DNA of 64,000 bases, taken from NCBI GenBank assembly GCA_036339375.1, contig JAYZBC010000025.1, positions 27,271 to 91,270 on the forward strand, read 5' to 3'. Every line of letters begins with the position of its first letter. The first letter of the stretch is position 1. The stretch comes from Pseudomonadota bacterium. GTDB taxonomy: Bacteria; Pseudomonadota; Alphaproteobacteria; MPNO01; UBA2964. This document shows, piece by piece, positions 12,538-62,425 of the stretch. Below the pieces are notes generated by a model. That model did not search any database, was not told the DNA's origin, and was given only the letters and a program-made list of their open reading frames with translations. The position numbers were made by a program, and so were the translations under genes.

Positions 12538-12597
12538 TTTCATCTCTCCTCTCATTTTTAAATCTTCTACCAACAAATATTGTTGTTATCGACATGT

Positions 12598-14094
12598 TTA
12601 ATCCCTTAGGTAGCCCCATCTTTCCCAAGCCTTTCGTCGGGCTTCTGGGGTAGGTGCGTTCACTTTTTGGAACTTATCTTTCCAATGAAATGGACGACAA
12701 GCATTAATGATAGCTCTACTGTTATAGAGCTTACCTTGTTCACGGTCATCAGGCGAAATAACTGGATCCAACGCGGAACTCCACATATTGTGAATTATAT
12801 CTATGCCACTTGCTGGATCACAGCGCGTACAAACTGCCCAAATAACTTCTTCTAAATTAGAAACATCAACATCTTCGTCAACTACCACAACAATCCGGCC
12901 CAAATAAGCACCAGCATGGCAGGTGGCTGTAATTTGGCCAGCCTGGGTCGCATGACCCGGATACCGTTGCTTGATAGACACTGCCAAAAATAAACGCGAA
13001 CCCCCAACCTCATGGGCCCAAACCTCCACAACATCAGGAACACCTGCTCGGTTAATATTTTCCTTCAATACAGCCGAACGGCTGATCGCCCGATAACGAG
13101 CATATTCATAGGGCATCCGAATATGAGCGGCACCTAAAATAATGGGATTGTTGCGATGATAAATTGCCGCAATATCTATCCAAGGCTCAGCCGCCATTAC
13201 TCCACCTTGATAGCCAAGCCATTCCCCAAAAGGGCCCTCACGACTTGTATTGCCCGGATTTATAAATCCCTCAATAACAATTTCAGAATTAGCTGGAAAA
13301 GGCAGTCCGGTATGTTTACCTTCAACACACTCTATGGCTTTTCCACGATAGGCACCCATCATATCAAGCTCACACATACCTTCGGGTGCTTCCGTCGAAG
13401 ATGTCAAAAATGATAATGGATCGCTGCCAACAACAACACATACTGGCATGGGTTTGTTATTTGCCAGGTACTTGTCTCTGTGGATCCTCCCATGTTTTCC
13501 AGGGGAAATATAAAGTCCCACTCTTTTTGCATCATGTACCATCACCCGATAGGTACCACAATTTATCCAACCGCTATCTGGATCACGTGTGATATTGAAA
13601 CAGCCTGTTCCAATATACCTACCCCCATCTTCTGGATTCCAAAGGGGTGATGGAAATTTCGTAATATCAACATCTACACCTTCGGTGATGTTTTCAAAAA
13701 TCGGGCCATCCCTAACAATAGCATGAGGTATAGGTGTGAGATTCCGGGTATGGCGATGATATGCCTGACTTAGTTCAAGTTTATTCAGTTGAGAGGGAAA
13801 TCCAAGTGTGAGGTTCTTTCGTGTACCCGTAAACCAGTTGATTAATAAACGAAACCCCTTCGGACTGCCCTTCACCTCATCAAACAGAATTGTGGGAGTA
13901 TTTTCGTCGTGACAGACGACTTCAACTACTTGACCAATATCGCTCTCCCAATCCGCTCCTTTCACAATTTTTAGGTCACCACGTTTTTTTACTTCCTCCA
14001 ACCAATCACGTAGATCAACATATTCAAGTGCGCAGCCTGCATTCGGGCCAACACCCTGTATAGTCTCGGGTTCAATTGCATTCCCCATTCCCAC
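12598..14094 (-). CDS. UbiD-family decarboxylase paralog 2
   Basis: 498 aa with DGGRYIGTG and NSEIVIEG motifs. By-eye identity is about 50% to paralog 1 and about 70% to paralog 3. GTG/ATG start is ambiguous. Confidence 0.8.
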   Translation of the reverse strand: MGMGNAIEPETIQGVGPNAGCALEYVDLRDWLEEVKKRGDLKIVKGADWESDIGQVVEVVCHDENTPTILFDEVKGSPKGFRLLINWFTGTRKNLTLGFPSQLNKLELSQAYHRHTRNLTPIPHAIVRDGPIFENITEGVDVDITKFPSPLWNPEDGGRYIGTGCFNITRDPDSGWINCGTYRVMVHDAKRVGLYISPGKHGRIHRDKYLANNKPMPVCVVVGSDPLSFLTSSTEAPEGMCELDMMGAYRGKAIECVEGKHTGLPFPANSEIVIEGFINPGNTSREGPFGEWLGYQGGVMAAEPWIDIAAIYHRNNPIILGAAHIRMPYEYARYRAISRSAVLKENINRAGVPDVVEVWAHEVGGSRLFLAVSIKQRYPGHATQAGQITATCHAGAYLGRIVVVVDEDVDVSNLEEVIWAVCTRCDPASGIDIIHNMWSSALDPVISPDDREQGKLYNSRAIINACRPFHWKDKFQKVNAPTPEARRKAWERWGYLRD

Positions 14095-14185: not shown

Positions 14186-15679
14186 TTAAGAGGGTTTTTC
14201 GCAAAGGTGTCCCCACTTCTCTATAGCCTCTCTCATGACTTCTGGCTCCGGAGAATTTACAGGGGGAAATTCATCTTTCCAATGAAATGGGCGACAAGCA
14301 TCAATAATCGCCCGGCTATTAGTCAAATTGCCTTTGGCTTTTTCTTCCGGTGGAATTCTTGGATCCAAAGGTGTAGACCAACAATTATGAATGATATCAA
14401 TTGAGGTTGCTGGATCAGAACGTGTGATCATGCCCCAGATTAGCTCTTCCAAGTTAGTCACATCAATATCATCATCTACAACGATTACGTATTTACCTGC
14501 ATATGCCCCGAGATGACACATAGCAGCAACGTGACCCGTTTGCATTGCATGTCCAGGGTAACGTTGCTTTATTGAAATAGCGAGTAACATTCGGGCGGTA
14601 CCAACTTCGTGGGCCCAAACCCCTTGCACATCTGGCACTCCAGCCTTGACAATATTTTCTTTGAGTGCGGCTGAACGTGTAACTGCCCTATAACGTGCCA
14701 ACTCATCTGGTGGGCGCAGAGGTGGACAGCCCAAAATTATTGGATCGTTCCTGTGATAAATAGCCTTAATGTCTAAAACTGGCTCAGCACGCATTTTTGA
14801 ACCATAGTAGCCAGTCCATTCCCCGAATGGTCCCTCTTCAACCCGGTTACCAGGTTCAATAAAACCCTCTAATACAAGTTCCGCATTTGCAGGAAAGGGT
14901 AAACCAGTATGTTTGCCTTTGACGCATTCAATAGCATGCCCCCGATAGCCTCCTAAAATATCATATTCACAGGCACCGGGTGGCATTTCTGTACAACCCA
15001 TTAAGAAGGCCATGGGATCACCACCCAAAACGATACAAGCCGGCATAGGCTCACCATTAGCTTCGTATTTATCACGATGGATTCGACCATGTTTCCCGGG
15101 CGAAATGTAAAATCCGACTTGTTTTTTGTTATGGATCATAACCCGGTAGGTTCCGATATTTATCCAATCACTATCTGGATCACGCGTTACATTGTAGGAA
15201 CCCGTTCCTATATAACGTCCACCATCTTTGTCATGCCACATCGGCGTCGGAAATTTCTCGACGTCTATGTCATCGCCTTCCATAATATTTTCGAATACCG
15301 GCCCGTTATCAACAATTGCATGTGGAATTGGCTCTATAGAAGATAGATGTTTATGGACCCCGTCGGTTAGCTCAAGTTTGGTAAAGTCAGGGGAAAAACC
15401 CATTGTCATGCATTTTCGTTTACCGGCAAAGAAATTGATCATCATTCTAAAACCAGGAGGACAACCCGGCACTTCATCAAAAATGATGCAGGGCGCGTTT
15501 TCATCATGCTGGACAACTTCAGAAGCCAACCCGATGTCCTTTTCCCAACTCGCTCCCTTAACGACTCTAACTTCGCCAAGTTTCTCGGCTTCCACGATCC
15601 ATTCTCTCATATCTTCGTAAGTCATACGGGCACCAACATTCGAACCACTGTCAACGGCCGTAGCTTTTACATCTGCCAT
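14186..15679 (-). CDS. UbiD-family decarboxylase paralog 3
   Basis: About 497 aa with DGGRYIGTG and NAELVLEG motifs. Start placed at ATG 15679 (MADVKATAV...) with a GGGAGAG SD upstream. The ORF-track start 15754 is an upstream in-frame extension. Confidence 0.8.
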   Translation of the reverse strand: MADVKATAVDSGSNVGARMTYEDMREWIVEAEKLGEVRVVKGASWEKDIGLASEVVQHDENAPCIIFDEVPGCPPGFRMMINFFAGKRKCMTMGFSPDFTKLELTDGVHKHLSSIEPIPHAIVDNGPVFENIMEGDDIDVEKFPTPMWHDKDGGRYIGTGSYNVTRDPDSDWINIGTYRVMIHNKKQVGFYISPGKHGRIHRDKYEANGEPMPACIVLGGDPMAFLMGCTEMPPGACEYDILGGYRGHAIECVKGKHTGLPFPANAELVLEGFIEPGNRVEEGPFGEWTGYYGSKMRAEPVLDIKAIYHRNDPIILGCPPLRPPDELARYRAVTRSAALKENIVKAGVPDVQGVWAHEVGTARMLLAISIKQRYPGHAMQTGHVAAMCHLGAYAGKYVIVVDDDIDVTNLEELIWGMITRSDPATSIDIIHNCWSTPLDPRIPPEEKAKGNLTNSRAIIDACRPFHWKDEFPPVNSPEPEVMREAIEKWGHLCEKPS

Positions 15680-15732
15680 AAAATTTCTCTCCCTAAGTAA
15701 ATACGTCCCATTTCCAATTATTCTCGAAAATA

Positions 15733-15823
15733 GGCAATACACAATTTGCCACAAATTTTAAAAAAGGTAAAAGTTTTCGAATGGCAATACAAAAACTTTT
15801 GAAAGACTAGAATTATGCCATTC
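15733..15823. promoter_or_regulatory. Cluster of inverted and direct repeats upstream of UbiD-3 (candidate operator plus promoter)
   Basis: GGCAA-N8-TTGCC inverted repeat at about 15733-15750. (A/T)GGCAATACA repeated directly at about 15732 and 15781. GAATGGCA...TGCCATTC inverted repeat at about 15779-15823. All lie in the 190-nt gap between the 2OG oxygenase stop and the UbiD-3 start. Confidence 0.3.
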
Positions 15824-15946: not shown

Positions 15947-16864
15947 TTATCCGGAAATTTCATTACTCTCCGCAATCCGTTGAGCAACATAGGCACCAGC
16001 CGTTGTGGCTGGATATTTGGCTGGTTGACCCACGCTGACACAACTGTCGAAAGCACTCACTGGTACATCTGTATCAGGATCAACAAAAAATGCTATTGAA
16101 TAACGTTCACGATCCCCAGTAATAGCTCTTACCCTGTGAGGGCTTGAACAATAGCGATCATTTGTCCAAGTTGCGATCAAATCAGCTGTATTTACAATTA
16201 CCGTCCCTGGAATGTGCACTGCATCGAGCCATTGACCAGAACGATTTTGGATTTGTAGACCTCCTACATCATCCTGAAATAATAAAGTTATTGTACCAAA
16301 ATCTGTGTGTGCTCCAGCCCCTAATTGATTTGCAGATAAATTTTTACCCGAAATAGGGTAATGTAAATAACGTAAAGCCACATTTTCTCCCTTATGACGT
16401 TCGCGAAAATATTTAATTGGAAGGTCAAGTGCTATGGCAAAGGCTTCCATAACAATATTTGACCCTCGTAAACATTCTCCGAAAGCACGGACAGCAATTC
16501 TACGAAATTCGTTGGAAGGCCATAAATTCAAAAATTTCTCACGCAACGGTACATCGCGCATGGTAAAGGCTTCTTTCAAATCAGGGGCAAATTGGGAATC
16601 AAGTCGTTGTTCTCCAACACCTTGGTATCCATGGTTCATGTCTTGAACGTAAGATAATTTTGATTTTTCGGACAGCGGTTGTTTGAAAAATTTTACACTA
16701 GAATTAAATGCATCTTGGAGAATATTTTGGTCAATACCTAAATTTTTTGCATACATAAAACCTACTTCAGACGCGGCCTTATTTACCTCTTCTGAAATTC
16801 TCCGTCGTTCGTTTTCGTCACCACTGTCAAATCTTTTAAAATCGATTAGAGGTATATTTGTCAC
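15947..16864 (-). CDS. 2OG-Fe(II) oxygenase, isopenicillin-N-synthase-like (COG3491-type)
   Basis: 305 aa. N-terminal (...IPLIDFKRF...) plus HxD...H facial triad region (GAHTDFGTITLLFQDD...SSPHRV). Confidence 0.7.
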   Translation of the reverse strand: MTNIPLIDFKRFDSGDENERRRISEEVNKAASEVGFMYAKNLGIDQNILQDAFNSSVKFFKQPLSEKSKLSYVQDMNHGYQGVGEQRLDSQFAPDLKEAFTMRDVPLREKFLNLWPSNEFRRIAVRAFGECLRGSNIVMEAFAIALDLPIKYFRERHKGENVALRYLHYPISGKNLSANQLGAGAHTDFGTITLLFQDDVGGLQIQNRSGQWLDAVHIPGTVIVNTADLIATWTNDRYCSSPHRVRAITGDRERYSIAFFVDPDTDVPVSAFDSCVSVGQPAKYPATTAGAYVAQRIAESNEISG

Positions 16865-16895: not shown

Positions 16896-18440
16896 CTATA
16901 AAGAAAATTTATCCTTAATCCAAAATTCTGCCAGTGCATTTCGATCAAGCTTTCCCCGAGAATTTTTTGGCAGTTCATTTAAAAATATAATTTTTTTAGG
17001 GCATTTAGCTGCAGGCAATGTTTTCGAACAATGTTCCATTAAATCTTTAGGGTTCACTTTACTGCCTTTTTTACAAGAAACGTACGCAATTATTTCCTCT
17101 CCATAAATTTTATCAGGTATTCCTAATGTTCCTGCTTCAGATACTGCTTGATGCAAAACCAATACAGCATCAATTTCGAGTGGGGCAATATTTATTCCCC
17201 CCCGAATAATTAATTCCTTTGCCCTTCCCACAATATGGAGATGGCCCTCACTATCAACATAACCCAGATCACCAGTTTTGTGACCTCCCTCTGGCAAGAG
17301 TTCAATTTTACCGTTTGGTAATAAATAACCAAATGCCTGCTGCTTACCCCCTCCTACAATGATTTCTCCGGTTTTACTTTCTTTAAGTAAATTACCATCG
17401 CCATCAACAATACGAACATCTTGATATTTTAACTGTGGGCCAATCGACCCAATTTTTCTATCAGCTCCTCGGTGGGCTGCTGTGTTTCCTCCTTCACTTG
17501 AACCACAGCTTTGAGCAAGTGTAATACCAAAAATTTTTTCAAATTCACGCCATTGTTCTTCATGAAGTGGGGCAGAACTTGAGGTTAAAAATCGGAGCTC
17601 TGGTAATTTACCAATATTTGTATTTTGAGTTCGATTTAACAACATGTTAACCATTGTTGGGACTACAAAACCAATATTGATTTTAAATTTCTTCAACCAA
17701 TAAAAATAACGGCTCTGAGAAAACCGTTTGGCCATAAACGTAGTCCCGCCTGCGATGAGCGGAGCTCCAAGACTCATATGTTGAGCCGATAGCCAACTAT
17801 AAGATCGACAATCTAAAACCCGGTCTCCAGGGGATAGTTGGAGATAGTCAGCCGTAGCGTCATAATTGTAAAACGCATTGGCATGGGTTTGGATTACACC
17901 CTTTGGCTTCGCTACTGTGCCTGAAGTGTAAAAAATAACGCCATGATCATCCGGCTCTGCACAACTGGATAAATCATCCTTGTCAGTAAAATTATAAACT
18001 TCCGAAAAAAAGCCCGTCGAATTTTTCTCTCCTTTAAATTCTCCCAAAAGAAGCCATATCCCAGGGGCCTTTTGTTTTAATTCCTCCAGTCCCAAACCGC
18101 TTTGATACAAAATTATTTTTGGATCAATAGCCTTTATGATTTCAATCAAGCTACCTTGATTCATCTCAACATGGACTGTCGCTATACTCGCGCCATAACG
18201 CAGAACGCTTACGAATACTGCTAAATTTTCTACTGAGTTTTCAGCCAGTAACAATATACGGTCGTTGGCTTTTATTTTGTGTGTTTTTAAAAAGTGAGAT
18301 ATCCGATTAGACAACCCATAAAGGGTTCCGTAGGTAAGGGATTTGTTTTGATCAATACAATGGACGTAAATCCGATCCGGAAACTGGGCTGCGTTTTTGG
18401 CTAAAATTTGATGAAAATTTGTATAGCAGTTTAAAGCCAC
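16896..18440 (-). CDS. AMP-dependent synthetase/ligase (acyl-/aryl-CoA ligase)
   Basis: 514 aa with the adenylate-forming enzyme motif YTSGTVAKPKGV and a C-terminal ligase domain. Confidence 0.8.
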   Translation of the reverse strand: MALNCYTNFHQILAKNAAQFPDRIYVHCIDQNKSLTYGTLYGLSNRISHFLKTHKIKANDRILLLAENSVENLAVFVSVLRYGASIATVHVEMNQGSLIEIIKAIDPKIILYQSGLGLEELKQKAPGIWLLLGEFKGEKNSTGFFSEVYNFTDKDDLSSCAEPDDHGVIFYTSGTVAKPKGVIQTHANAFYNYDATADYLQLSPGDRVLDCRSYSWLSAQHMSLGAPLIAGGTTFMAKRFSQSRYFYWLKKFKINIGFVVPTMVNMLLNRTQNTNIGKLPELRFLTSSSAPLHEEQWREFEKIFGITLAQSCGSSEGGNTAAHRGADRKIGSIGPQLKYQDVRIVDGDGNLLKESKTGEIIVGGGKQQAFGYLLPNGKIELLPEGGHKTGDLGYVDSEGHLHIVGRAKELIIRGGINIAPLEIDAVLVLHQAVSEAGTLGIPDKIYGEEIIAYVSCKKGSKVNPKDLMEHCSKTLPAAKCPKKIIFLNELPKNSRGKLDRNALAEFWIKDKFSL

Positions 18441-18526: not shown

Positions 18527-20092
18527 TTAGCCGTTACCTGTCTCACCCAACCAACGAAAGTAGGGATCTTGCATTGCCCGAAGTTCAGAGAGTTCATCAT
18601 CAGAAAACCATTTAGAAAAATCCATTTCCTCGACTGGATAATGGGCTCGTTCATAAACCTGTACACCGAGGGGTGCTGTAGCATCAATTCCCATACCTCC
18701 ATCAGATACGGAGATATTGCCAATCTTGTGTTCAGAAGGCTGAAAAGCCTGACCTCGTCCGTATTCGTTATAAACGATGTAATCTTTAGTAGCAGAAGCA
18801 CGCGATTGAATGGCCCACATCACGTCTTCCGGTTGCCAGGGGTCAATATCATCATCCACAACAACGACGAGTCGCATGCCTCGGTAAAGTCCCATTATGG
18901 CGGTGAGTAAATTGCGCTGCATACCTTCATCGGAGCGCCGACGTTTTTTTACCTGGATAACCAATCCACCCCAAAGTGTTAGACCTAGCCAGCTCGCAAC
19001 ATCTTTTACAAAGCCAGGGGCCATCCTTTCACAAAGCTCAAAAACGCTGGCACACATAAAAGGGGCCTCATACCAAAAAGCACCAAAATGTGGGGTGTAC
19101 ACAATTGGATTATTTTTACGCCGAGTTACTGCGGTGAGTTCAAAAGCCCGGGGCGTCCGATATGCATGGCCCATAGTACGCGCCCACTCGGGATGCAATA
19201 AAGCCACCCCTTGTTTACCCATTTCTTCTGCTTCAGCAGTTTCCCAAACACGTTCTCCTTCTACAACATACCCCTCAAGTGACCACTCAGCATTGGCAAT
19301 TGTATATGCATCTACCGTTTTGGCCTTCACTACATCCACTGGGTAACCCTGAATGGCACCAGCAAAACCCAGCTTATCTGTCTGCCCGGGGAAAATGACA
19401 GGGTTCATAGTAGAGACTGAAACTAGTTCAGGACCGACAGGTGGGCAAATATTTACCGTGCATGGTACTTTCTCCCCTTGGTGACGCGAGCAAATTACGT
19501 CACCAGCGCCCCCTGGCACCATGTTTATAGAAGCAAGTTTGTGTCCTTCTCTAAACGACATTCGATACATAGAAATTTGACTACCACCCCCAGGTACCCA
19601 GGGTTCACCCATAAAAAGATGTGATCCCGCACCGAAAATTCTTCCGCCATCTTGGAAGGTGTGTTGTGCAACGGGTATAATTTCTTCAATATGATTAAAA
19701 TCTTTCCCCGGGATAAGTGTTTCCTCATGGACCGGACCGTCGTCTACCACGCGTGGGGCAATTGGATTTTCAACCTGCTTTAATAGCTGATTTTTGATGT
19801 TTCGGAAGTCATCACACCCGTGAAATAAACACACACGCTCTTTTCTAGAGTATAGATTAGATATCATCCTAACATTTGGATAACCTTTGATTTTGTTAGC
19901 AACAATTACTTTAGAGTTATCAAAGGCTTTGGTTATAGTACACATCTCAACGTGGGGATCGACCTCGGCGTCAATATAGTGAACATCGTCGCCAAGCCAT
20001 TCAAGTGTAGACCGTAAGTCAACAAGCCCTTCACCACGCGTCAGGCTGCTAAACCTTTGATCGTCTAGCTTAACTGTCATTCGGTCTGACAT
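18527..20092 (-). CDS. UbiD-family decarboxylase paralog 4 (divergent)
   Basis: 521 aa. UbiD-like throughout (QDGGRIFGAG..., NAEWSLEG) but much more divergent than paralogs 1-3. Confidence 0.7.
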   Translation of the reverse strand: MSDRMTVKLDDQRFSSLTRGEGLVDLRSTLEWLGDDVHYIDAEVDPHVEMCTITKAFDNSKVIVANKIKGYPNVRMISNLYSRKERVCLFHGCDDFRNIKNQLLKQVENPIAPRVVDDGPVHEETLIPGKDFNHIEEIIPVAQHTFQDGGRIFGAGSHLFMGEPWVPGGGSQISMYRMSFREGHKLASINMVPGGAGDVICSRHQGEKVPCTVNICPPVGPELVSVSTMNPVIFPGQTDKLGFAGAIQGYPVDVVKAKTVDAYTIANAEWSLEGYVVEGERVWETAEAEEMGKQGVALLHPEWARTMGHAYRTPRAFELTAVTRRKNNPIVYTPHFGAFWYEAPFMCASVFELCERMAPGFVKDVASWLGLTLWGGLVIQVKKRRRSDEGMQRNLLTAIMGLYRGMRLVVVVDDDIDPWQPEDVMWAIQSRASATKDYIVYNEYGRGQAFQPSEHKIGNISVSDGGMGIDATAPLGVQVYERAHYPVEEMDFSKWFSDDELSELRAMQDPYFRWLGETGNG

Positions 20093-51378: not shown

Positions 51379-51915
51379 TTAGAACTTCCAACATTTTTGG
51401 TCAGAGGACAAATCATTTATTAAACGGTTGATTGAGCGATGCTTCGTTGGATGAATCCATTCGGGTTCAAGATCACGCAAAGGAAAAAGAACAAATGCAC
51501 GTAAATGCATTCGCGCATGAGGTAGGACTAATTTAGTACCTTTATTTACGTTAAAGACACATTGGTGGTAAATAAGCAAATCGAGGTCCAAACTTCTGGG
51601 TGCATTTGGGCCTGTTCTTACACGCTCAAACTGTTTTTCTATTTCTTGCAACCTTGAAAGAAGAATTATTGGTGTTAATTCTGTTTTAACTTCTGCTACA
51701 GCATTAAAAAAGTTGGGTTGGCTAGATATAGGTAATGGGGTGCTTTGATACCATGGCGAACAACGGATAACATCACAAACACTCTCATTAATAGCAACAA
51801 TTGCCGCTTTAAGGGAACGCAAGGGTGACCCAAACTTTTTGGTTGGCAAATTTCCACCAATTCCTATTAAAATCATTTGCGTCAAATACTCTTTTAAATC
51901 AAATAATGTTCTCAT
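51379..51915 (-). CDS. folK: 2-amino-4-hydroxy-6-hydroxymethyldihydropteridine pyrophosphokinase (HPPK)
   Basis: 178 aa with HPPK motifs (IGIGGNL..., LDLDLLIY). Confidence 0.8.
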   Translation of the reverse strand: MRTLFDLKEYLTQMILIGIGGNLPTKKFGSPLRSLKAAIVAINESVCDVIRCSPWYQSTPLPISSQPNFFNAVAEVKTELTPIILLSRLQEIEKQFERVRTGPNAPRSLDLDLLIYHQCVFNVNKGTKLVLPHARMHLRAFVLFPLRDLEPEWIHPTKHRSINRLINDLSSDQKCWKF

Positions 51916-52022
51916 CTAGTGAATATATCTTCACTTTCCTTACCAAACCCCAATGTGTCTATATTTTGTTCGCTTCAGCAAGTATTATTTCAAAAGTTGT
52001 TTACCATCCGGAGAATAGAATT

Positions 52023-52649
52023 TTGCAGCCAAGTCCAAATTGCCCTTTATGCCCTCGACTCCTTCAGTATCGTTTAAAAAATAGATCCTCATTTCCCCAA
52101 TGGCATAATGCCCCGGTTAAACCTTTTGGAGGATTGGATTCCCAACTATTGATTGTTGGTTTGGCTCCCGGATTGAAAGGAGCAAACCAAACGGGAAGAC
52201 CTTTCACCGGGGATTATGCAGGTGATCTTTTATATAAAACGCTCATGGAATTTGGATTTGCTGAAGGAGAATATCAGAAACATGCAGAAGATAATTTATT
52301 TCTAAAGGATTGTCGAATTACAAACGGTGTTCGTTGTGCCCCCCCTAAAAACAAACCCACCGGAACCGAGATAAAAAGTTGTGCAAAGTTTTTGGAGGCT
52401 GAAATTAAAGGGATGAAAAATTTGATTTGTATATTGGCCTTAGGAGGAATTGCTCATACTACAGTTTTGGCTGTGTTAAACCAAAAAAGAGCCAAGTGGC
52501 CATTTAAACATGCGGCAATACACCATTTGCCAAACCTTCCAATTCTCGTAGATAGCTATCATTGCTCAAGATATAATACTAATACCGGAAGGCTCACCAA
52601 TGTTATGTTTAACGAAGTTTTCTTAAAAATAAAAAAACTACTTTATTAA
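52023..52649 (+). CDS. Uracil-DNA glycosylase, family 4 (Fe-S type)
   Basis: The C-terminal 208 aa of ORF 51825..52649 carry the UDG family 4 signature (...GLAPGLKGANQTGRPFTGDYAG...). The in-frame region upstream of about 52023 overlaps folK and has no good start. A TTG at about 52023 with a GGAGAA SD 8 nt upstream is proposed, but the start is uncertain. Confidence 0.55.
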   Translation: MQPSPNCPLCPRLLQYRLKNRSSFPQWHNAPVKPFGGLDSQLLIVGLAPGLKGANQTGRPFTGDYAGDLLYKTLMEFGFAEGEYQKHAEDNLFLKDCRITNGVRCAPPKNKPTGTEIKSCAKFLEAEIKGMKNLICILALGGIAHTTVLAVLNQKRAKWPFKHAAIHHLPNLPILVDSYHCSRYNTNTGRLTNVMFNEVFLKIKKLLY

Positions 52650-54337: not shown

Positions 54338-55345
54338 ATGGACACTGAAAGAAGTAAAAATAAGATCGACTTACCTTCTTTCACCGATATATCTATGGCG
54401 GCCCAGAGACTGGTTGGCATTATTCACTGCACTCCTCTTTTTGAATCATTAAAAATTAACAAAAAGTTGGGAGCCAAAATTTTTTTTAAAATGGAATCAA
54501 AACAACGGACAGGGTCTTTTAAAATCCGTGGTGCTTACAACAGAATAAGCCAAATCCCAATAGAAACCCGCTCACGAAACATCGTTGCTTTTTCTTCAGG
54601 AAATCATGCACAGGCTGTTGCAGCAGTGGCAAAAATGCTTGATTTTAAGGCAACAATAGTAATGCCCGAAGATGCACCAGAAATTAAAATTTCTGCAACA
54701 AGGAAGTATGGTGCAAACATAATCTTCTACAATAGACTGACAAAAAATCGTGAAAACATTGCACGTTCCCTTATCGCCAAAAATGGTGGAACGTTAGTAC
54801 CACCATTTGATCACCCTTTGGTAATTGCCGGACAAGGAACAGTAGGATTGGAAATATCAAAGCAACTGGAAAAGTTAAATTCAGTACCTGATGTGTTCCT
54901 TGTGCCATGCAGCGGCGGGGGACTAGTGTCTGGAATTGCAATTGCAATAAAACAAAAATTTAAAAAAGCCAAAATTTTTTCGGTTGAACCGTCAGGTTAT
55001 GACGATACCGCGCGGTCGTTAAAATCAGGTAACAGAGTAGTGTTATCCCAATTTAAACCATCAATTTGTGATGCATTGTTGGTGCCAACTCCCGGAAAAC
55101 TAACATTTCAAATTAACCAACGGCTTTTGTCTGGAGGTTTGGTGGTTACTGATTCCATGGTTGAGAATGCCATGAGGTTTGCTCATAATTTTCTTGGACA
55201 AAAAATAGAACCCAGTGGGTGTGCCGCATTAGCAGCATTGCTAGAAAATATTGACAAATTTAGAAACAAAATTGTGGTAGTTATCTTATCCGGTAAAAAC
55301 GTAGACCCTCATTTCTTTAATAAAATCCTGAACGAAAAAATTTAA
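54338..55345 (+). CDS. PLP-dependent threonine/serine dehydratase-like enzyme (no ACT regulatory domain)
   Basis: 335 aa with a fold-type II PLP enzyme lysine motif (...SKQRTGSFKIRGAYN...) and a glycine-rich loop (CSGGGL). Confidence 0.7.
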   Translation: MDTERSKNKIDLPSFTDISMAAQRLVGIIHCTPLFESLKINKKLGAKIFFKMESKQRTGSFKIRGAYNRISQIPIETRSRNIVAFSSGNHAQAVAAVAKMLDFKATIVMPEDAPEIKISATRKYGANIIFYNRLTKNRENIARSLIAKNGGTLVPPFDHPLVIAGQGTVGLEISKQLEKLNSVPDVFLVPCSGGGLVSGIAIAIKQKFKKAKIFSVEPSGYDDTARSLKSGNRVVLSQFKPSICDALLVPTPGKLTFQINQRLLSGGLVVTDSMVENAMRFAHNFLGQKIEPSGCAALAALLENIDKFRNKIVVVILSGKNVDPHFFNKILNEKI

Positions 55346-55414: not shown

Positions 55415-56935
55415 CTAAATTTTAAGTTCCAAAAGTGCGTTTTCCTTAACCTCCCTACGCAATACCTTTCCAACACTACTACGGGGCAAATCATTGAGTG
55501 TTTTTATGTTTTTTGGAGATTTTATTGAACCAATAACTTGTTTGGAAAATCCAAGCATTTCGGACTCGTTAGCTTTGACACCTTTTTCTAAAACTACTGC
55601 GGCCTGAACAACTTCACCCCATTTTTCATCAGGTAAACCATACACGACACACTCATAAATCGCTGGGTGTTTAACAAGTGCAGCTTCAACATCACTTGGA
55701 TAAACATTAAACCCTCCGGAAATTATTACATCCCGTAATCTATCTTTAATAAAAAGATAACCCCTGTCATCTAAAAGGCCTACATCGCCTGTACGCAGCC
55801 AGTTTCCGGTTTTTACTGCTGATGTAGCGTCAGGCATATCCAGGTACTCACTCATCAAAAGATCACCGCTAACTACAATTTCTCCTGTATTTCCCTCCGG
55901 CAATTCTTCATCACTATTTGGCTCCATAATTGTTACCCTTGTAAGAAAACTTGAAGGACCCACTGATTCTACATTCTTCTCTTTCAGCATTTCATTTGGA
56001 GAAAGATAAGTCACTATTTGGGGTGCCTCGGTTTGCCCATAATTTGTAGCTAAAACAGGACCAAAAACCCCCTGTGCCGCACGAATTTTTTCAGAAGGCA
56101 TTGGAGCCCCACCATAAATAAGCCTTGAAAGCATGGGGAATTTCTGTTCTTCGCCTCCAATCTCTGACATCATCATGTAAATAACGGTTGGTGGAATAAA
56201 ACTCGTTGTAATATCCCTATTTTTGAAAGCATCCAGAATATCCGGTGGCCTCATAATCCTTTTACCAAGGACAAGGGTGCCCCCGACACCCAAAATTGGT
56301 GTAACATAACAAGAGGTACCGTGAGTAAGAGGAGAACAAACAAGGTAGCGGTCTCCACCACATAATTCCAATTCATTGATCATACAAGCGGCTCCCGTTA
56401 ACCAGGAACGATAAGGTTGCAATACTCCCTTCGGCCTACCACTCGAACCACCGGTAAATTTGATTGCTTGAATATTTTCACCATTAAAGTTATTAATATT
56501 TGGCCGCTTACCGCGATTTTTTTCTATCAATCCTCCGATTGTATCCAAGGCGGTTGACATTCCACTAAACCCAACAATTTTTTCCCCTTTAAATAAACCC
56601 ACTTGGCCTTCACAATCTTCATCAAAAATCAAGATTGAAGGTTTTGCCGCTTCAATTTTTAATTGGATGTCATTTTTCCCATCGCGTGGGTTTAAGGGTA
56701 CCCAAACTTTTCCTGCTGCCATGACAGCCAACAAACCAATTAAATGCTCCAAAGAATTATATCCACAAATCGCCACACGCGATTGCGGTCTTTCATCGAG
56801 CCCGTGTATGGCCGCAGCAAGGGAATTAACCCGTTCTACCAATGAGGCGTAAGTGATAACTTCAGTTTCAGTCTCAACGGCTACAGCGTTCGGCGCCCGC
56901 CGGCAGGAAGCATACAAAAAATCTATTGGAAACAT
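55415..56935 (-). CDS. AMP-dependent synthetase/ligase (acyl-CoA ligase, second copy)
   Basis: 506 aa with the adenylation motif FTGGSSGRPKGV. Confidence 0.8.
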   Translation of the reverse strand: MFPIDFLYASCRRAPNAVAVETETEVITYASLVERVNSLAAAIHGLDERPQSRVAICGYNSLEHLIGLLAVMAAGKVWVPLNPRDGKNDIQLKIEAAKPSILIFDEDCEGQVGLFKGEKIVGFSGMSTALDTIGGLIEKNRGKRPNINNFNGENIQAIKFTGGSSGRPKGVLQPYRSWLTGAACMINELELCGGDRYLVCSPLTHGTSCYVTPILGVGGTLVLGKRIMRPPDILDAFKNRDITTSFIPPTVIYMMMSEIGGEEQKFPMLSRLIYGGAPMPSEKIRAAQGVFGPVLATNYGQTEAPQIVTYLSPNEMLKEKNVESVGPSSFLTRVTIMEPNSDEELPEGNTGEIVVSGDLLMSEYLDMPDATSAVKTGNWLRTGDVGLLDDRGYLFIKDRLRDVIISGGFNVYPSDVEAALVKHPAIYECVVYGLPDEKWGEVVQAAVVLEKGVKANESEMLGFSKQVIGSIKSPKNIKTLNDLPRSSVGKVLRREVKENALLELKI

Positions 56936-56944
56936 AAAATTATT

Positions 56945-57382
56945 TCACTCTAGAAAAATTTTTATTGAAATCACCTGTCCATCTCGAATTCCTAAAGTAT
57001 CCCTTATGGGCAATACGGAAATCAATTCAATTTGGTCAGGAGGGTAGTCTTTTATCTGTGGCAAAATTATAGCTGCTTCAATTCTTTCCTCAATTGTAGA
57101 AAGAAAACAGCGGGCATCACACCAATCTGAGCGATGTGGCTGCAATAAAATTCCCGGTAAATTTCTGATCCAAGACCATTTTTTCTTTGATATTTCATCT
57201 GTTACAAGGGCATTTAAAGTCCCGGGGAAAGGGTCAATTCCAAGGTTTTTATGAAACGCTTTTCGTGCCCAATCTAACTGTGTAAACTCAGACCCTTTAC
57301 CTAACCCTGTAACAATTTTTCCGAGTACTGATTCTGTTCTCATTTTTCTATCAATATTTTTGTCCAACTTAACATTGCACAA
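56945..57382 (-). CDS. DUF120 / archaeal-type CTP-dependent riboflavin kinase-like protein
   Basis: 145 aa. GKIVTGLGKGSEF and GIDPFPGTLNALV match the Gly-rich and PxxGTLN motifs of MJ0056-type riboflavin kinase. 9 nt upstream of the acyl-CoA ligase on the same strand. Confidence 0.55.
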   Translation of the reverse strand: MCNVKLDKNIDRKMRTESVLGKIVTGLGKGSEFTQLDWARKAFHKNLGIDPFPGTLNALVTDEISKKKWSWIRNLPGILLQPHRSDWCDARCFLSTIEERIEAAIILPQIKDYPPDQIELISVLPIRDTLGIRDGQVISIKIFLE

Positions 57383-57431
57383 CCAACTTTAGATGAGCAA
57401 TATTCAAAATAGGACAAAAACTTTTAAATCA

Positions 57432-57506
57432 GCGGGTGTAGCTCAGTGGTAGAGCACGAGCTTCCCAAGCTCGGTGTCGAGGGTTCAATTCCCTTCACCC
57501 GCTCCA
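57432..57506 (+). tRNA. tRNA-Gly (anticodon CCC)
   Basis: Cloverleaf folds by hand: 7-bp acceptor stem GCGGGTG/CACCCGC, D-arm GCTC...GAGC, anticodon stem CGAGC/GCTCG with loop TTCCCAA, T-arm GAGGG-TTCAATT-CCCTT, and an encoded CCA. Confidence 0.85.
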
Positions 57507-57538: not shown

Positions 57539-58765
57539 TCAAATGATGGACTGCCCCTTGAGTTCATTGATTTCTTCTTCTTGTAACTCAAGAACTTCCT
57601 CCAAAACCTCTTCCGTATGTGCACCCAAAATTGGGGGAGAGTGTCGATATGTTACCGGTGTTGCAGAGAAATTTAGGGGACTACCGACTAGTGAAACATT
57701 TTGTCCATCCACAGCATCGTGAGGCATTTGTATTATCATGCCACGTTCCTGCACATGTTTATCATTAAAAACCTGTTCTATTGAATTAATAGGACCACAA
57801 CCAATGGTTAATTTTTGGAGCGCAGTCAGCCATTCTTTTGAGGTTTTTGAAGCCATAACAGGCTGCATAGCCATAATCAGCGTATCTCTATTCTTAACTC
57901 GAGCACTATTGCTTTTATAAAGCTCATCATTTGCGAGTTCTTCACAATTCGCAAACTCACAAAACCGTTGAAATTGTGGATCATTGCCAATTGTCAGCAT
58001 AATATGACTATCCTTAGTCGCAAAAACTTGGTAGGGAACAATATTAGGATGTCCGTTGCCAAGGCGGGGTGGATTTGACCCACTAGTAAGGTAATTCATT
58101 GCCTGTATAGAAAGCCAAGCTGCTTGAGTATCTAACATTCCAATATCGATATATTGACCCTGACCGTCGCACTCTCGTGACCGTAGGGCAGCACAAATTG
58201 CCACAGTTGCATACATGCCTGCCATAATATCGGCTATTGGGACACCGGTTTTCATGGGATCACCTTGGGGCTCACCCGTGACACTCATAATCCCGCCCAT
58301 GGCCTGAATAAGCGGATCGTACCCCGCTCTTTCAGCGTATGGCCCGTTTTGACCAAACCCTGTGATTGAACAATAAATAAGCCTTGGACATTCATTTTTT
58401 AAAGTTTCATAACCTAGGCCATACCGAACAAGGTTACCGACTTTAAAATTTTCTACTAATACGTCTGCCTTTTTTGCTATGCGACGAACTAAATCCTGAC
58501 CCTCTTTTTTGGAAATATCGATAGAAACAGACCTTTTGTTACGATTGGCACCCAAAAAATAAGCACTCTCTAAGGTATCCTCCCCTTCTTTATTTTGTAA
58601 AAAGGGCGGTCCAAATCGCCGAGTGTCATCACCATTGTTCGGACGTTCTATTTTGATAATATTCGCCCCTAAATCCCCTAAAATTTGTGTACAAAAAGGT
58701 CCCGCTAAAATTCGGGTTAGATCAAGAACAGTGATCCCATCAAGAGCTCCACTATTTTTTTTCAT
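57539..58765 (-). CDS. Family III CoA-transferase (CaiB/BaiF), paralog of 6035..7267
   Basis: 408 aa, roughly 55-65% identical by eye to the first CoA-transferase (e.g. LIYCSITGFGQ(N/T)GP...AGYD.LIQAMGG(I/L)MSVTGEP). Confidence 0.8.
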   Translation of the reverse strand: MKKNSGALDGITVLDLTRILAGPFCTQILGDLGANIIKIERPNNGDDTRRFGPPFLQNKEGEDTLESAYFLGANRNKRSVSIDISKKEGQDLVRRIAKKADVLVENFKVGNLVRYGLGYETLKNECPRLIYCSITGFGQNGPYAERAGYDPLIQAMGGIMSVTGEPQGDPMKTGVPIADIMAGMYATVAICAALRSRECDGQGQYIDIGMLDTQAAWLSIQAMNYLTSGSNPPRLGNGHPNIVPYQVFATKDSHIMLTIGNDPQFQRFCEFANCEELANDELYKSNSARVKNRDTLIMAMQPVMASKTSKEWLTALQKLTIGCGPINSIEQVFNDKHVQERGMIIQMPHDAVDGQNVSLVGSPLNFSATPVTYRHSPPILGAHTEEVLEEVLELQEEEINELKGQSII

Positions 58766-58887
58766 GGTTTCATCCTGTAATTATTATTCTACGCACAGTC
58801 ACTATCGAAAAAAATTCTAAAACAAAGTTGACAGGTTCCCCACTGATAATTCAACCTTTTAACAAAAGTTGCATAAACGAAAATACA

Positions 58888-59361
58888 ATGATTGACAGGA
58901 TAGAAAAAAAAATCAATCAAATGGGGTACACTTTGCCGAAGCCATTTGTTTACCCCAGTCCTAATAGGACAGGGTGCCTCAAAACGGGTAATTTGTTGTT
59001 TGTTTCAGGACACCCTCCGCCGATGGATTTCGGAGTGGCCGTGTTCGGCAAAGTTGGGGCAACAATTACTGAAGAAGAAGCCGTAATTTCCGCTCGTGCA
59101 ACCGGTCTAAATATGCTTGCATCAATTAAACAGCAACTCGGTGACCTTCAGAAGATCAACAGGATAGTTAAATTAAATGGTATGGTAAATTCTGCACCCG
59201 GTTTTCAACGTCAGTTTGCCGTCATTGATGGTGCTTCTAATTTATTTTATGAATTACTCGGACCAAGACATGGACAGCATGCAAGGAGCGCTGTTGGAAT
59301 GTTCGAATTGCCCAGAGGATTTTGTATGGAAATTGAAGGTATTTTTGAAATAAAGGTTTAA
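58888..59361 (+). CDS. RidA/YjgF/L-PSP family protein
   Basis: About 157 aa from ATG 58888 (MIDRIEKK...) with the YjgF-like fold pattern. ATGA overlap with the convergent end of the FAH gene. Confidence 0.6.
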   Translation: MIDRIEKKINQMGYTLPKPFVYPSPNRTGCLKTGNLLFVSGHPPPMDFGVAVFGKVGATITEEEAVISARATGLNMLASIKQQLGDLQKINRIVKLNGMVNSAPGFQRQFAVIDGASNLFYELLGPRHGQHARSAVGMFELPRGFCMEIEGIFEIKV

Positions 59362-60206
59362 CCTGGGTAAGATATTATTTTATGTTTTTGTTGGCCGAGA
59401 CCATCAATTCCCATATCAATAACATCATTTGGTTGCAACCATTTTGGTGGTTTAAATCCAACAGCCACTCCGTGCGGAGAACCGGTTGTTAACACGTCAC
59501 CAGGATTAAGCGACATAAACTCACTCACATATGCTACTAATTCGGCCATTCCAAAAACCATGTCAGAGGTATTGCCGTCTTGGCGAATTTCGTCGTTCAC
59601 CTTCGTCCAGATACGCTTTTTTTGTGGATTGCCAAATTCATCTGCTGTCACTAACCAGGGGCCAAGAGGACCGAAAGTGTTAGCACTCTTGCCCTTTGTT
59701 GTGCCGCCCGCTCTTTCTCGCTGAAAGGCCCGCTCGGAAACATCATTCATTATGCAGTATCCCGCTATATAGTTGAGACCCTCAGCAGCACTCACATTAA
59801 TAGCGGTCCGCCCAATTATCGCAGCAAGTTCCACTTCGTAATCTAAATTTGTTGAAGTCTTTGGTTTGATTATTGGATCAAATGGACCAACTACCGAACT
59901 AATCGCTTTTAAAAATAATACAGGCTCTTCAGGCCGAGTGTATCCCATTTCTAAAATATGGTTCATGTAATTCTGTCCAACAGCAACGATTTTTGGAATA
60001 CCCGATATTGGAACACCAAGACGAGGTTCACCTTTTACTTCGGGAAGCGTATGAAAATTTAAATTTTGCAGTTGAGCAAGATTATCAGGAGCAAGTGTAT
60101 CCCCTGTAATATCTGAAATTTTTCCGGATAAATCACGAAGCAAACCGGATCGGTCTATCAACCCAGGTTTTTCTTCCCCTATATTGCCAAATCTTACAAG
60201 TTTCAT
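59358..60206 (-). CDS. Fumarylacetoacetate hydrolase (FAH) family protein (hydratase, decarboxylase or hydrolase)
   Basis: 282 aa single FAH domain with metal-binding acidic residues. Confidence 0.7.
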   Translation of the reverse strand: MKLVRFGNIGEEKPGLIDRSGLLRDLSGKISDITGDTLAPDNLAQLQNLNFHTLPEVKGEPRLGVPISGIPKIVAVGQNYMNHILEMGYTRPEEPVLFLKAISSVVGPFDPIIKPKTSTNLDYEVELAAIIGRTAINVSAAEGLNYIAGYCIMNDVSERAFQRERAGGTTKGKSANTFGPLGPWLVTADEFGNPQKKRIWTKVNDEIRQDGNTSDMVFGMAELVAYVSEFMSLNPGDVLTTGSPHGVAVGFKPPKWLQPNDVIDMGIDGLGQQKHKIISYPG

Positions 60207-60271: not shown

Positions 60272-62425
60272 ATGGCAAAGGAAAAAAATGTTGTTCCCAC
60301 TACCTGTTGGGAGTGTAGCACTCATTGTGGCGCCTTAATGTCCGTAAAGGACGGTAGAGTTACAAAAATAGTGCCTAACAACAAACATCCAAGTTCACTA
60401 GGAGCATTTTGTGTCAAAGGTTTCCGTGGTTTACCGGAACTTACCTATCACCCTAAAAGGATATTGTCCCCCATGAAACGAATGGGGGGTCGTGGCGAGG
60501 GAAAATGGGAAAACATTACCTGGGACGAAGCGTTAAATATTTTTTATCAAAAAATGTTTTCCGTTATAGACAAATTCGGCCCAGTTTCAGTCTGTGGTGC
60601 TGTTAGCAACGCCCATTTTAGCCGTGGGGTTTCTTTAGCTCTTTTGATGAGAGCCTTTGGATCGCCAAACTGGATGATAAATCAAGACCTATGCGGTGGT
60701 TGCCGTGCGGTTTCGGATAAATTAACAGGGCTCAATATTTCGAATGGTGAGGATATAGAAAATACCAATTGCGCATTAATCGTTGGACGTAACCCTTCGG
60801 CTGCAGACCCCGTACAATGGCTCTCATTAAAGAGAGCAAAAAGTCGTGGGGCAAAAATAATCACTATAGACCCGGCAAAGACCCCTGCTGCTTTGATGGC
60901 TGATATTTGGCTCCGTCCTAAAATTGGCACGGATGCAGCAATAGGTCTCGCCCTGACTAATTGGCTGATAAAAAACAAACAATATGACAAAGACTTCGTT
61001 AATCATTTCTGCCATGGATTTGATAAACTTGCTGAAAGGGCAGAGAAATTTACACCTGATTTCGCTTCAAAGATAAGTGGCGTCAATGCAAAAGACATCG
61101 TTAAAGCTGCTGAATACTACGCAAACGGACCGTCCTGTTTTGTAAGTGGACATGGGATAGATGCTTTTAGTGCCGGCGTCCAAACATACCGCACTTTTCA
61201 TGCTCTAGTCGCCATAAGTGGTAATTTGGATCGTAAGGGCGGTAATCGTCGGGTAAAAAGACCCCCGGGTTTCACAAATTATATAGAAGTGCTGCACAAA
61301 CAAGAGTTTCGCCTGCCTCATAAAATAGAAAAACAAACCATTGGAGCTGAGAAGTTTCCCTTATGGGCTGGCCCTGAAGGGTGGCAAACCGCCTGCCATA
61401 ATCCCTCAGTTATCAATGCCATCCTTACCGGCAAACCCTACCCCATTCGTGCCCTTTATGTAACCGGTGTCAACATAGTGGTTACCTATCCTAACACAAA
61501 AAAAACGATTGAAGCGCTTAAATCCCTCGACTTTCTTTGTGTAGCGACCCATATGATGACGCCGACTGCAGAATTTGCAGACCTAATTTTGCCAAAAACG
61601 ACTGGCCTAGAAGATGAAGAAATTTCTCTGGAAGCAAGTGGCCCCTGTTTGAGTGTCATTCAACCAGCTCACCCACCACTTGGTGAGGCTCGAAGTGATT
61701 TTATGATAGCTCAGAATTTGGTCCACCTAATGGAAAAGGGAAGAAATCCCCATGCCCGTCGTTATTTTCCTTGGAAAACTAAAAGCGATTTCAATAAATT
61801 CCTTTTAGGAGATGGACCAATAAACATTAAACAACTCAAACGAGATGGTTATGCACAGTACGAATATAAATTAGAAAATTTTCGTGAAGAAGGATTCAAA
61901 ACCAAGACCGGGAAAATAGAGTTATTTTCTGAAAAACTAGCAACACTTGGATTGGATCCCCTTCCTAACTACGTACCCATACCCCCCACCGAGCGAAAAA
62001 CAAAGACTAATTTTCCATATACACTCCTCACGGGAGCGAGGGAGAAAACCTACCATCACTCACGTTTTCGAGATCAAAACTGGGCTAGAAAAGTGTCGCC
62101 TGACCCCTGGTTACAACTTCACCCTGAAACGGCAACTAAAATTGGAGTTAAAACTGACGATTGGGTCAAAGTGGAAACGCCTAAAGGACAGCATTCTTGT
62201 TACCTAAAAGTGAAAGTTACAGACACCACTATGCCTGATTTAGCACGGACTGGTATGGGCTGGTGGTATCCAGAGAGTAAAGGCCCAGAACATGGGGCTC
62301 TAGACATTAATATCAACGTAGCACTCAGCTATGACGGGCCATGGGATCCAGCAACCGGTTCATCAGATATTCGCGGATTACCTTGCCGAATTACTCGGAC
62401 TAACAACATGGTTGTAAATAGATAA
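60272..62425 (+). CDS. Molybdopterin (bis-MGD) oxidoreductase family protein, stand-alone cytoplasmic MopB
   Basis: 717 aa. N-terminal Cys12-x2-Cys15-x3-Cys19...Cys47 4Fe-4S motif, WENITWDEAL MopB signature, and a C-terminal MopB_CT region. No Tat signal and no adjacent Fe-S or heme subunit. Confidence 0.75.
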   Translation: MAKEKNVVPTTCWECSTHCGALMSVKDGRVTKIVPNNKHPSSLGAFCVKGFRGLPELTYHPKRILSPMKRMGGRGEGKWENITWDEALNIFYQKMFSVIDKFGPVSVCGAVSNAHFSRGVSLALLMRAFGSPNWMINQDLCGGCRAVSDKLTGLNISNGEDIENTNCALIVGRNPSAADPVQWLSLKRAKSRGAKIITIDPAKTPAALMADIWLRPKIGTDAAIGLALTNWLIKNKQYDKDFVNHFCHGFDKLAERAEKFTPDFASKISGVNAKDIVKAAEYYANGPSCFVSGHGIDAFSAGVQTYRTFHALVAISGNLDRKGGNRRVKRPPGFTNYIEVLHKQEFRLPHKIEKQTIGAEKFPLWAGPEGWQTACHNPSVINAILTGKPYPIRALYVTGVNIVVTYPNTKKTIEALKSLDFLCVATHMMTPTAEFADLILPKTTGLEDEEISLEASGPCLSVIQPAHPPLGEARSDFMIAQNLVHLMEKGRNPHARRYFPWKTKSDFNKFLLGDGPINIKQLKRDGYAQYEYKLENFREEGFKTKTGKIELFSEKLATLGLDPLPNYVPIPPTERKTKTNFPYTLLTGAREKTYHHSRFRDQNWARKVSPDPWLQLHPETATKIGVKTDDWVKVETPKGQHSCYLKVKVTDTTMPDLARTGMGWWYPESKGPEHGALDININVALSYDGPWDPATGSSDIRGLPCRITRTNNMVVNR

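Follow-up and report, generated by a model that had tools for sequence, protein, structure and literature searches.

An archaeal-type riboflavin kinase homolog beside an acyl-CoA ligase gene in an alphaproteobacterium, and the linkage of its bacterial relatives to UbiX

Introduction

Archaeal-type riboflavin kinases are represented by MJ0056 (RibK; PF01982; structures 2vbv and 2oyn), a single-domain protein of about 130 amino acids with a GxGxG loop, a PxGTLN motif, a catalytic and Mg-binding glutamate, and a Leu/Ile-Arg cytosine loop. A related kinase domain is found in RbkR of Thermoplasma acidophilum (5trd, 3cta), which acts both as a riboflavin kinase and as a transcription regulator and carries an N-terminal winged-helix domain in addition. 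RibK orthologs have been stated to be absent from Bacteria (PMC5397151). Here a member of this family (DUF120) is described from a 64-kb stretch of the genome of a Pseudomonadota bacterium (GenBank assembly GCA_036339375.1, contig JAYZBC010000025.1, positions 27,271 to 91,270), hereafter called the window, in which its gene lies 9 nt from that of an acyl-coenzyme A (CoA) ligase. Positions refer to the window unless preceded by the label of a related locus (L followed by a number). The pair had been picked out by a first-pass annotation made from the sequence alone. On balance we lean, though only slightly, towards an accessory nucleoside triphosphate-dependent riboflavin kinase that would supply flavin mononucleotide (FMN) to flavin and prenylated-FMN (prFMN) enzymes, in addition to the usual RibF.

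RibF is a bifunctional riboflavin kinase and FMN adenylyltransferase dependent on adenosine triphosphate (ATP), and its kinase reaction, riboflavin to FMN, is presumed to be the same as that of the protein described here. RibF-type kinases have a PTAN motif as against GTLN, and use ATP as against cytidine triphosphate (CTP) (bioRxiv 10.1101/2021.04.15.440061). The second system of relevance is that of UbiX and UbiD, an example of which is the pps/ppc phenol cluster of the Azoarcus/Thauera type. UbiD decarboxylases and carboxylases, which serve in the anaerobic degradation of aromatics and in biocatalysis, need prFMN.

There are precedents for riboflavin kinases in comparable company. Plant AtFMN/FHy is a fusion of FMN hydrolase and riboflavin kinase, in which the kinase is joined to a HAD phosphatase, and RcaA of the Microbacterium riboflavin-catabolic cluster is an extra riboflavin kinase that feeds a flavoenzyme within a catabolic cluster. 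Both are RibF/eukaryotic-type kinases and not members of PF01982.

Family, fold and active site of the DUF120 protein

The DUF120 gene occupies 56945..57343 on the minus strand and encodes 132 amino acids from an ATG at 57343. The longest open reading frame (ORF), 56945..57382, opens with TTG and gives the 145-residue protein of the first-pass annotation. This ORF exists, but translation probably begins at ATG 57343 and not at TTG 57382, because more than 60 database homologs of about 132 amino acids have as their first residue the methionine encoded by that ATG, and the gene call in L001, a metagenomic contig 98% identical to the window, begins at the same codon. Residue numbers below are those of the 132-residue protein.

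In a Pfam search the small protein matched PF01982 (DUF120, CTP-dependent riboflavin kinase) with 101 bits against a gathering cutoff of 25 (E 5.7e-29), over profile positions 1-121 of 121 and residues 23-142 of the 145-residue ORF. Among solved structures, those closest in sequence by HMMER were MJ0056 (E 6e-11) and, through its kinase domain, Thermoplasma RbkR; identity to the MJ0056/RibK group was 26-29%. A match to NF010762 was confined to the kinase part of that model, positions 92-217. By sequence the protein is a PF01982 family member, but no equivalog by the NCBI criterion. Annotation pipelines already name such proteins "CTP-dependent riboflavin kinase" or "DUF120 domain-containing protein".

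An AlphaFold2 model built from 51 homologs (pLDDT 93.2, pTM 0.87) consisted of a single domain, predicted to be the small barrel of the MJ0056 type. When this model was searched with Foldseek, the best match was RbkR (5trd, TM 0.87), followed by MJ0056 with bound cytidine diphosphate and FMN (2vbv, TM 0.80), both with probability 1.00. No other structure scored convincingly; RibF-type kinases, represented by the human enzymes 1q9s and 1nb0, reached a TM of about 0.35 and are only remotely related in structure. The protein lacks the winged-helix domain of RbkR, and neither Pfam nor the model revealed a winged helix-turn-helix or other DNA-binding domain.

Residue roles were taken from the study of RbkR (PMC5397151) and from a preprint on MmpRibK (bioRxiv 10.1101/2021.04.15.440061); residues beyond RbkR position 133 were mapped by HMMER pairwise alignments and the invariant columns of alignments A1 and A2. 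The CTP site of RbkR is formed by the Gly102/104/106 loop, by Thr131 of YxGTLN, Leu132 and Asn133, and by the cytosine loop Leu202-Arg203 (PMC5397151). Mg ligands in MmpRibK are Gly14, Asn41 and Glu104 (bioRxiv 10.1101/2021.04.15.440061), the last of which, equivalent to Glu195 of RbkR, is the catalytic glutamate contacting both Mg and FMN (PMC5397151; bioRxiv 10.1101/2021.04.15.440061). The glycine-rich and GTLN motifs recognized in the first-pass annotation are present in the window protein as GKIVTGLGKG and PFPGTLN. Within them the loop glycines G13, G15 and G17 and the phosphate-site motif F39-P-G41-T42-L43-N44 are kept, with lysine (GLGKG) in place of the loop glutamate of GxGEG. The catalytic glutamate is E106, from the HMMER alignment to 3cta, and the cytosine-loop pair is I113-R114, R114 being replaced by lysine in some UbiX-linked members.

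Conservation across the family was strongest at these same positions. G13, G41, T42, N44 and E106 were invariant in all 94 sequences compared, P95 and D121 were likewise invariant in the alignments, and G15, Y100 and R114 were conserved in at least 90%. An alignment with MJ0056 and RbkR had been proposed as the check on the assignment, and Thr42, Asn44 and Glu106 all withstood it. The conserved residues map onto the CTP and FMN contacts of RbkR and RibK and onto the Mg ligands of MmpRibK. As judged from these alignments, the bacterial gene encodes an archaeal-type RibK family member with its catalytic residues kept.

The flavin pocket is more variable. Tyr115 of RbkR, a flavin contact, has been called absolutely conserved in RibK and RbkR (PMC5397151). 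At this position all of the bacterial groups have alanine or valine (serine in one case), nearly always after a tryptophan. The tyrosine is also missing from 9 of 23 archaeal sequences, and the Trp-Ala/Val arrangement is common to those of the Bathyarchaeia type. Every bacterial sequence in the comparison has this arrangement, as do these archaeal ones; on the alignment evidence it is a clade character and not a defect of the window gene. The remaining flavin contacts, F20, W74 (aromatic), P95, Y100 and E106, are kept or conservatively replaced.

Bacterial relatives and their linkage to UbiX and UbiD

A pattern scan covering 185,579 species, each represented by one genome, yielded at least 595 confirmed relatives. 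The bacterial ones are spread over Proteobacteria, Chloroflexota, Acidobacteriota, Bacillota and other phyla, and the complete MAG (metagenome-assembled genome) chromosomes OZ251539.1, OY730228.1 and OZ219790.1 are among the DUF120 carriers. This extent contradicts the published statement that Bacteria lack RibK orthologs; the first-pass description of the family as rare in bacteria holds only in a relative sense. Gene neighborhoods were counted for the best 80 of the at least 595 loci, 61 of them bacterial and 19 archaeal by title, with neighbors within 8 kb annotated by phmmer and tblastn. UbiX was found near 16 of the 61 bacterial loci, immediately adjacent and on the same strand in nine; no archaeal locus out of the 19 had UbiX nearby. 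Four further bacterial loci had UbiD without a visible UbiX, so that UbiX or UbiD accompanied 20 of 61 in total. By our own estimate, a single-copy gene would lie within 8 kb by chance in roughly 0.4% of cases, if the genome size is taken as about 4 Mb.

Five of the UbiX candidates (L026, L045, L056, L079 and L087) passed both NCBIfam cutoffs, NF004685 and TIGR00421. DUF120 homologs directly follow UbiX in L026, L038, L056, L057, L079 and L087, the stop codon of the first gene overlapping the start codon of the second in L026 and L056, and the gene order in L045 is RibBA-UbiX-DUF120. The arrangement is also present in a cultured organism. A tblastn search of PLSDB located, among the anaerobic phenol genes on plasmid pAZKH of Azoarcus sp. 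KH32C (NC_020548.1 138615-143037; L178), the order pps, ppcBDAG, UbiD, UbiX, DUF120, NUDIX hydrolase and AMP-binding protein, in which the stop codon of UbiX and the start of DUF120 (protein WP_015451796.1) overlap. The NUDIX protein could make dimethylallyl monophosphate from dimethylallyl diphosphate (DMAPP), and together with DUF120 both UbiX substrates would then be supplied. In L032 (1758-8738; a Ca. Marinacidobacterales MAG) UbiX, two family III CoA-transferases, UbiD and a DUF120 protein with a 116-residue tail follow one another in that order, a layout that we take to resemble clusters for succinyl-CoA:phthalate CoA-transferase and phthaloyl-CoA decarboxylase.

Gene fusions also place the family near flavin metabolism. 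A HAD phosphatase forms a C-terminal part of about 220 amino acids in DUF120 proteins of L028 (5746-6801) and L046 (7995-9032), both confirmed by Pfam, and 13 more loci (L029, L031, L033, L037, L043, L044, L049, L052, L058, L060, L072, L075 and L077) have an extension whose length suggests the same fusion. UbiX or UbiD lies near 7 of these 15 loci. These fusions, which recall the plant enzyme, belong to the relatives and not to the window. Fusion to an FMN-binding PNPOx domain was recognized by Pfam in L015 (7998-8870), and the length of the extension points to it in L019 and L023; all three are from Chloroflexota/Anaerolineae MAGs.

In a neighbor-joining tree calculated without support values, all bacterial sequences formed one group next to the Bathyarchaeia-type sequences, with UbiX-linked members on basal branches and, nested among them, the alphaproteobacterial groups linked to MR_MLE enzymes, which are enolase-superfamily proteins of the mandelate racemase type. 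The motifs LDWAR, GIDPFPGT, CDARCY and QIELIA are common to the UbiX-linked and MR_MLE-linked proteins, which suggests that both share one biochemical activity. Two archaeal loci, L063 (5661-6062 and 7980-8375) and L064, from Thermoproteota/Brockarchaeota MAGs, each carry two DUF120 paralogs separated by about 2 kb. The longer, a 227-residue ORF that is RbkR-like by length only, groups with classical archaeal sequences; the other, a stand-alone protein of 132 residues, falls in the Trp-Ala/Val clade, to which all bacterial members belong. No published link between UbiX/UbiD and riboflavin kinase or DUF120 was found in the searchable literature, which excludes subscription-only papers on Thauera/Aromatoleum phenol clusters, and within that literature the extent of the bacterial branch and its UbiX linkage appear to be unreported.

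A cassette with an MR_MLE gene and an acyl-CoA ligase

In the window the DUF120 stop is separated from the ligase ATG by 9 nt (56936..56944, minus strand, read directly from the sequence), and the ligase gene occupies 55415..56935 on the same strand; in this the first-pass annotation was right. The 506-residue product, which starts with ATG, is a class I adenylate-forming acyl-CoA ligase of the ANL superfamily, with an N-domain (PF00501, 203 bits) and a C-terminal domain (PF13193, 63 bits). It reached no NCBIfam equivalog cutoff, the top model being NF004837 (345 bits, cutoff 476), and its nearest solved structures were fatty-acyl/feruloyl-CoA synthetases, FadD8, FadD13 and MenE. Assignment as MenE itself was rejected (TIGR01923, 227 against a cutoff of 330; NF002966, 256 against 556). 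A terminator scan of the 9-nt spacer found no terminator-like site and the GC content is flat at about 0.40 over the region, which makes co-transcription of the two genes plausible. Promoter and terminator scans gave nothing operon-relevant above shuffled expectation.

Protein searches and contig look-ups identified many orthologs of the window ligase at 50-66% identity. Among these, the ligases downstream of DUF120 or DUF120-MR_MLE in L005, L171, L172 and L174 were 62-66% identical to that of the window (63% in L005). When metagenome contigs were scanned with seed peptides from the ligase, one of which was generic to the superfamily, all matches were paralogs of 26-35% identity. The gene order DUF120 - MR_MLE - ligase was observed in L005/L006, L172 and L174/L175. 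Upstream of this cassette in L172 and L174/L175 are a Mo-oxidoreductase, an FAH-family hydrolase, YjgF, a family III CoA-transferase and a divergent tRNA-Gly(CCC), with a 2-hydroxyacid dehydrogenase sometimes between the last two; downstream are PALP-HAD-SLT and dapA-smpB, the order PALP(-HAD-SLT)-dapA-smpB being found in L171, L172 and L174. The cassette recurs in L005/L006, where some of the genes upstream of it differ. The MR_MLE proteins of the relatives are nearest to L-talarate/galactarate dehydratase and mandelate racemase, and a MenC assignment was rejected for them, menC models scoring 24-56 bits.

DUF120-MR_MLE without the ligase is the commoner arrangement, found in L007, L008/L009, L012, L177, the contig of P0031 and ten genome loci, and in operons the gap between the two genes is 0-12 nt. 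MR_MLE-ligase without DUF120 occurs in L176, and DUF120-ligase without MR_MLE only in the window and L001, and in L171 with a gap of 230 nt. No MR_MLE gene was found by tblastn in the 64 kb of the window. Because the window nevertheless keeps all of the flanking synteny of the cassette, loss of MR_MLE is the simplest reading; the gene was probably lost from an ancestral three-gene operon, the juxtaposition of DUF120 and ligase being secondary. An association of DUF120 with the ligase does recur in other genomes, a check proposed in the first-pass annotation, but the direct kinase-ligase pair is not the conserved unit: the gene usually found downstream of DUF120 is MR_MLE, with the ligase as an optional third gene. 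The ligase, we infer, is a catabolic CoA ligase and not a biochemical partner of the kinase, and nothing was found pointing to cytidylylation or to a specific coupling to ligase chemistry, both of which had been considered.

A second alphaproteobacterial group (L025, L030 at ~7090-10360, L034, L039 and L040) has the order FAH-DUF120-MR_MLE-FAH with gaps of a few nucleotides. In three loci an HpaB-type oxygenase, one component of a two-component flavin-dependent monooxygenase, is encoded on the same strand upstream of tRNA-Gly/DUF120 (L008 3002-4453, L009 2875-4326 and L177 1642-3093), directly in L008 and L009 and with an MFS gene between in L177.

Proposed role and alternatives

The accessory kinase favored here would be a cradle-loop-barrel enzyme with an intact nucleotide-phosphate and Mg site that phosphorylates riboflavin to FMN using a nucleoside triphosphate, by analogy CTP. 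The family would form part of a bacterial flavin-cofactor module, with members that often neighbor UbiX or stand by RibBA and others joined to a HAD phosphatase or an FMN-binding PNPOx domain, and UbiX would prenylate the FMN to prFMN for UbiD decarboxylases. In one alphaproteobacterial lineage DUF120 is the first gene of the cassette tRNA-Gly(CCC) <-> DUF120 - MR_MLE - acyl-CoA ligase at a fixed chromosomal site, and in the lineage of the window the missing MR_MLE leaves DUF120 9 nt from the ligase. Supply of FMN to prFMN enzymes had been offered as one explanation of the pair, and the family-wide link to UbiX and UbiD lends it independent support. The window resembles the UbiX/UbiD systems in that it has UbiD paralogs, CoA ligases and CoA-transferases; it and its alphaproteobacterial clade differ in that the DUF120 partners are MR_MLE, the 506-residue ligase and FAH-family genes. 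The ribB-linked context of the Archaeoglobaceae, Methanoperedens and Syntrophoarchaeum loci is likewise different from the catabolic or UbiX-linked context of the window type.

Several observations weigh against this role. The protein scored 60.6 bits against a cutoff of 168 with NF040694, the NCBIfam ribK_Meth equivalog; the third glycine of the loop is often alanine in relatives; and the residue equivalent to the flavin-contacting tyrosine is Ala26, preceded by Trp25, so the pocket differs. Neither UbiX nor UbiD was found within 8 kb of DUF120 in the clade to which the window belongs, the UbiD cluster of the window lying 37-46 kb away, and the window gene does not itself belong to a UbiX-linked module in the sense of DUF120 a few genes from ubiX or ubiD. 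The FAH-DUF120-MR_MLE-FAH operons have no evident flavoenzyme, a context easier to reconcile with a role in one particular pathway than with the supply of a cofactor. The 64 kb contain no FMN riboswitch, tRNA being the only Rfam element near the DUF120 gene, and no enzymology for bacterial DUF120 members was found in the searchable literature.

Some of these points would suit a re-purposed fold, in which the kinase acts on a prenol (dimethylallyl alcohol to dimethylallyl monophosphate, the second UbiX substrate) or on a polyol or sugar acid of the MR_MLE/FAH pathway. The tight embedding of the gene as FAH-DUF120-MLE-FAH and DUF120-MLE, the change of an "absolutely conserved" tyrosine to Trp-Ala or Trp-Val in all bacterial members and the score below the equivalog cutoff all fit such a change of substrate, the side-by-side paralogs of two types in L063 and L064 hint at non-redundant roles, and adjacency to UbiX would suit the supply of either UbiX substrate. 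We nevertheless consider re-purposing unlikely. The rest of the flavin pocket is kept, the Trp-Ala/Val variant occurs in Bathyarchaeia-type archaeal sequences as well, and the PNPOx fusions and the RibBA linkage point to flavin and not to prenols or sugars. UbiX is, moreover, accompanied by a NUDIX protein in Azoarcus and by a HAD phosphatase in the fusions, either of which could itself make the monophosphate from DMAPP.

A related proposal is that bacterial DUF120 is a dedicated component of the prFMN system, either channeling FMN to UbiX or, with its altered Trp-Ala pocket, phosphorylating another substrate such as prenol to give the dimethylallyl monophosphate of UbiX, the bacterial origin of which is to our knowledge unsettled. 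This we regard as doubtful. The DUF120-MR_MLE-ligase cassette would on that proposal be a new pathway needing this kinase.

It is improbable that the protein is the main or only riboflavin kinase of its host, by non-orthologous displacement of the kinase half of RibF. The window contains no ribF in the Pfam annotation of its ORFs, and the DUF120 gene has a stable, vertically inherited position by tRNA-Gly, dapA and smpB in many alphaproteobacteria; composition gives no sign of an island. However, 64 kb cannot show ribF to be absent from the genome, and the occurrence of DUF120 is patchy, unlike that of an essential gene: it is missing from the corresponding site in L176, and in L002-L004 and L171 transposases or an integrase have disrupted it. 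RibF is, as far as we know, near-universal and essential in Proteobacteria.

A ligand-sensing role as an RbkR-like flavin sensor controlling the downstream catabolic genes, to which the union of this kinase domain with gene regulation in archaeal RbkR (PMC5397151) and the first position of DUF120 in operons might point, is highly improbable, because the protein has no winged helix-turn-helix domain and is modeled as a single domain; its catalytic residues are strictly conserved, and no conserved operator-like element is found upstream among relatives, an alignment of seven relatives showing no conserved block past the end of the tRNA.

The repeated adjacency to UbiX, the Azoarcus phenol cluster and the HAD and FMN-binding fusions suggest an overlooked accessory step in prFMN supply. 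If the UbiX link were confirmed, co-expression of the small kinase could improve yields of UbiD holoenzyme. For the window itself, the pairing of DUF120 with the ligase is probably an operon remnant after gene loss and no new two-enzyme chemistry.

Flanking genes and other window content

The tRNA-Gly(CCC) gene, identified by ARAGORN and Rfam at 57432-57506 on the plus strand, starts 88 nt from the DUF120 ATG. The adjacency recorded in the first-pass annotation is correct, with the qualification that the tRNA lies on the opposite strand and is divergent. The same divergent tRNA is upstream of DUF120 in six relatives (L001, L005, L008, L172, L174 and L177) and is a conserved synteny marker rather than a functional part. 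The site seems prone to insertions: where the window (57344-57506) and these six relatives have the tRNA, L171 (4568-6771) has a phage-type integrase and no tRNA, and transposases are found at the same site in L002-L004 and L176. A horizontal-transfer island was considered and rejected, given the flat GC content and extensive synteny with relatives.

The next gene upstream on the DUF120 strand encodes a family III CoA-transferase (57539..58765, minus strand; PF02515, 443 bits), which scored below the cutoff of the NCBIfam succinate-glutarate CoA-transferase model (483 against 750 bits). It has counterparts at the same position in L001, L008, L172 and L174, and homologs are near DUF120 also in L032, L033, L052, L058, L060, L070 and L077. 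Beyond it are a YjgF-like gene (58828-59361, plus strand) and an FAA-hydrolase family gene (59358-60206, minus strand), both from Pfam, and a molybdopterin oxidoreductase gene (60272-62425, plus strand) named from synteny and the Pfam labels of its equivalents in L001, L172 and L174, in which the order YjgF/FAA-hydrolase/molybdopterin oxidoreductase is repeated. On the other side, a PLP-dependent PALP enzyme (54338..55345, plus strand; PF00291) is convergent with the ligase and, followed by dapA and smpB, identifies the conserved position on the chromosome.

Four UbiD-family decarboxylase paralogs with Pfam UbiD domains are encoded in tandem or near-tandem on the minus strand at 11080-12576, 12598-14094, 14186-15754 and 18527-20092, and are possible consumers of an FMN-derived cofactor. 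The paralog at 14186-15754 exceeded the TIGR00148 cutoff, and one of the four had its best score, below cutoff, with phenylphosphate carboxylase beta. No UbiX was found by tblastn in the 64 kb. Within the cluster lie genes for a 2OG-Fe(II) oxygenase (15947-16864) and a second AMP-ligase (16896-18440, Pfam AMP-binding), both also on the minus strand, and the catabolic region further includes a second family III CoA-transferase, an acyl-CoA dehydrogenase, two luciferase-like monooxygenases and a flavin reductase.

By Pfam, the rest of the window is unremarkable chromosomal DNA that carries parC, recO, era, rnc, lepB, pdxJ, spoT, folK, smpB and dapA. The longest ORF of a uracil-DNA-glycosylase-like gene (51825-52649, plus strand) begins at a far-upstream GTG and overlaps the folK ORF (51379-51915, minus strand); its true start probably lies further downstream than that GTG. 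The glycosylase label comes from synteny, a PF03167 gene standing at that position in L174.

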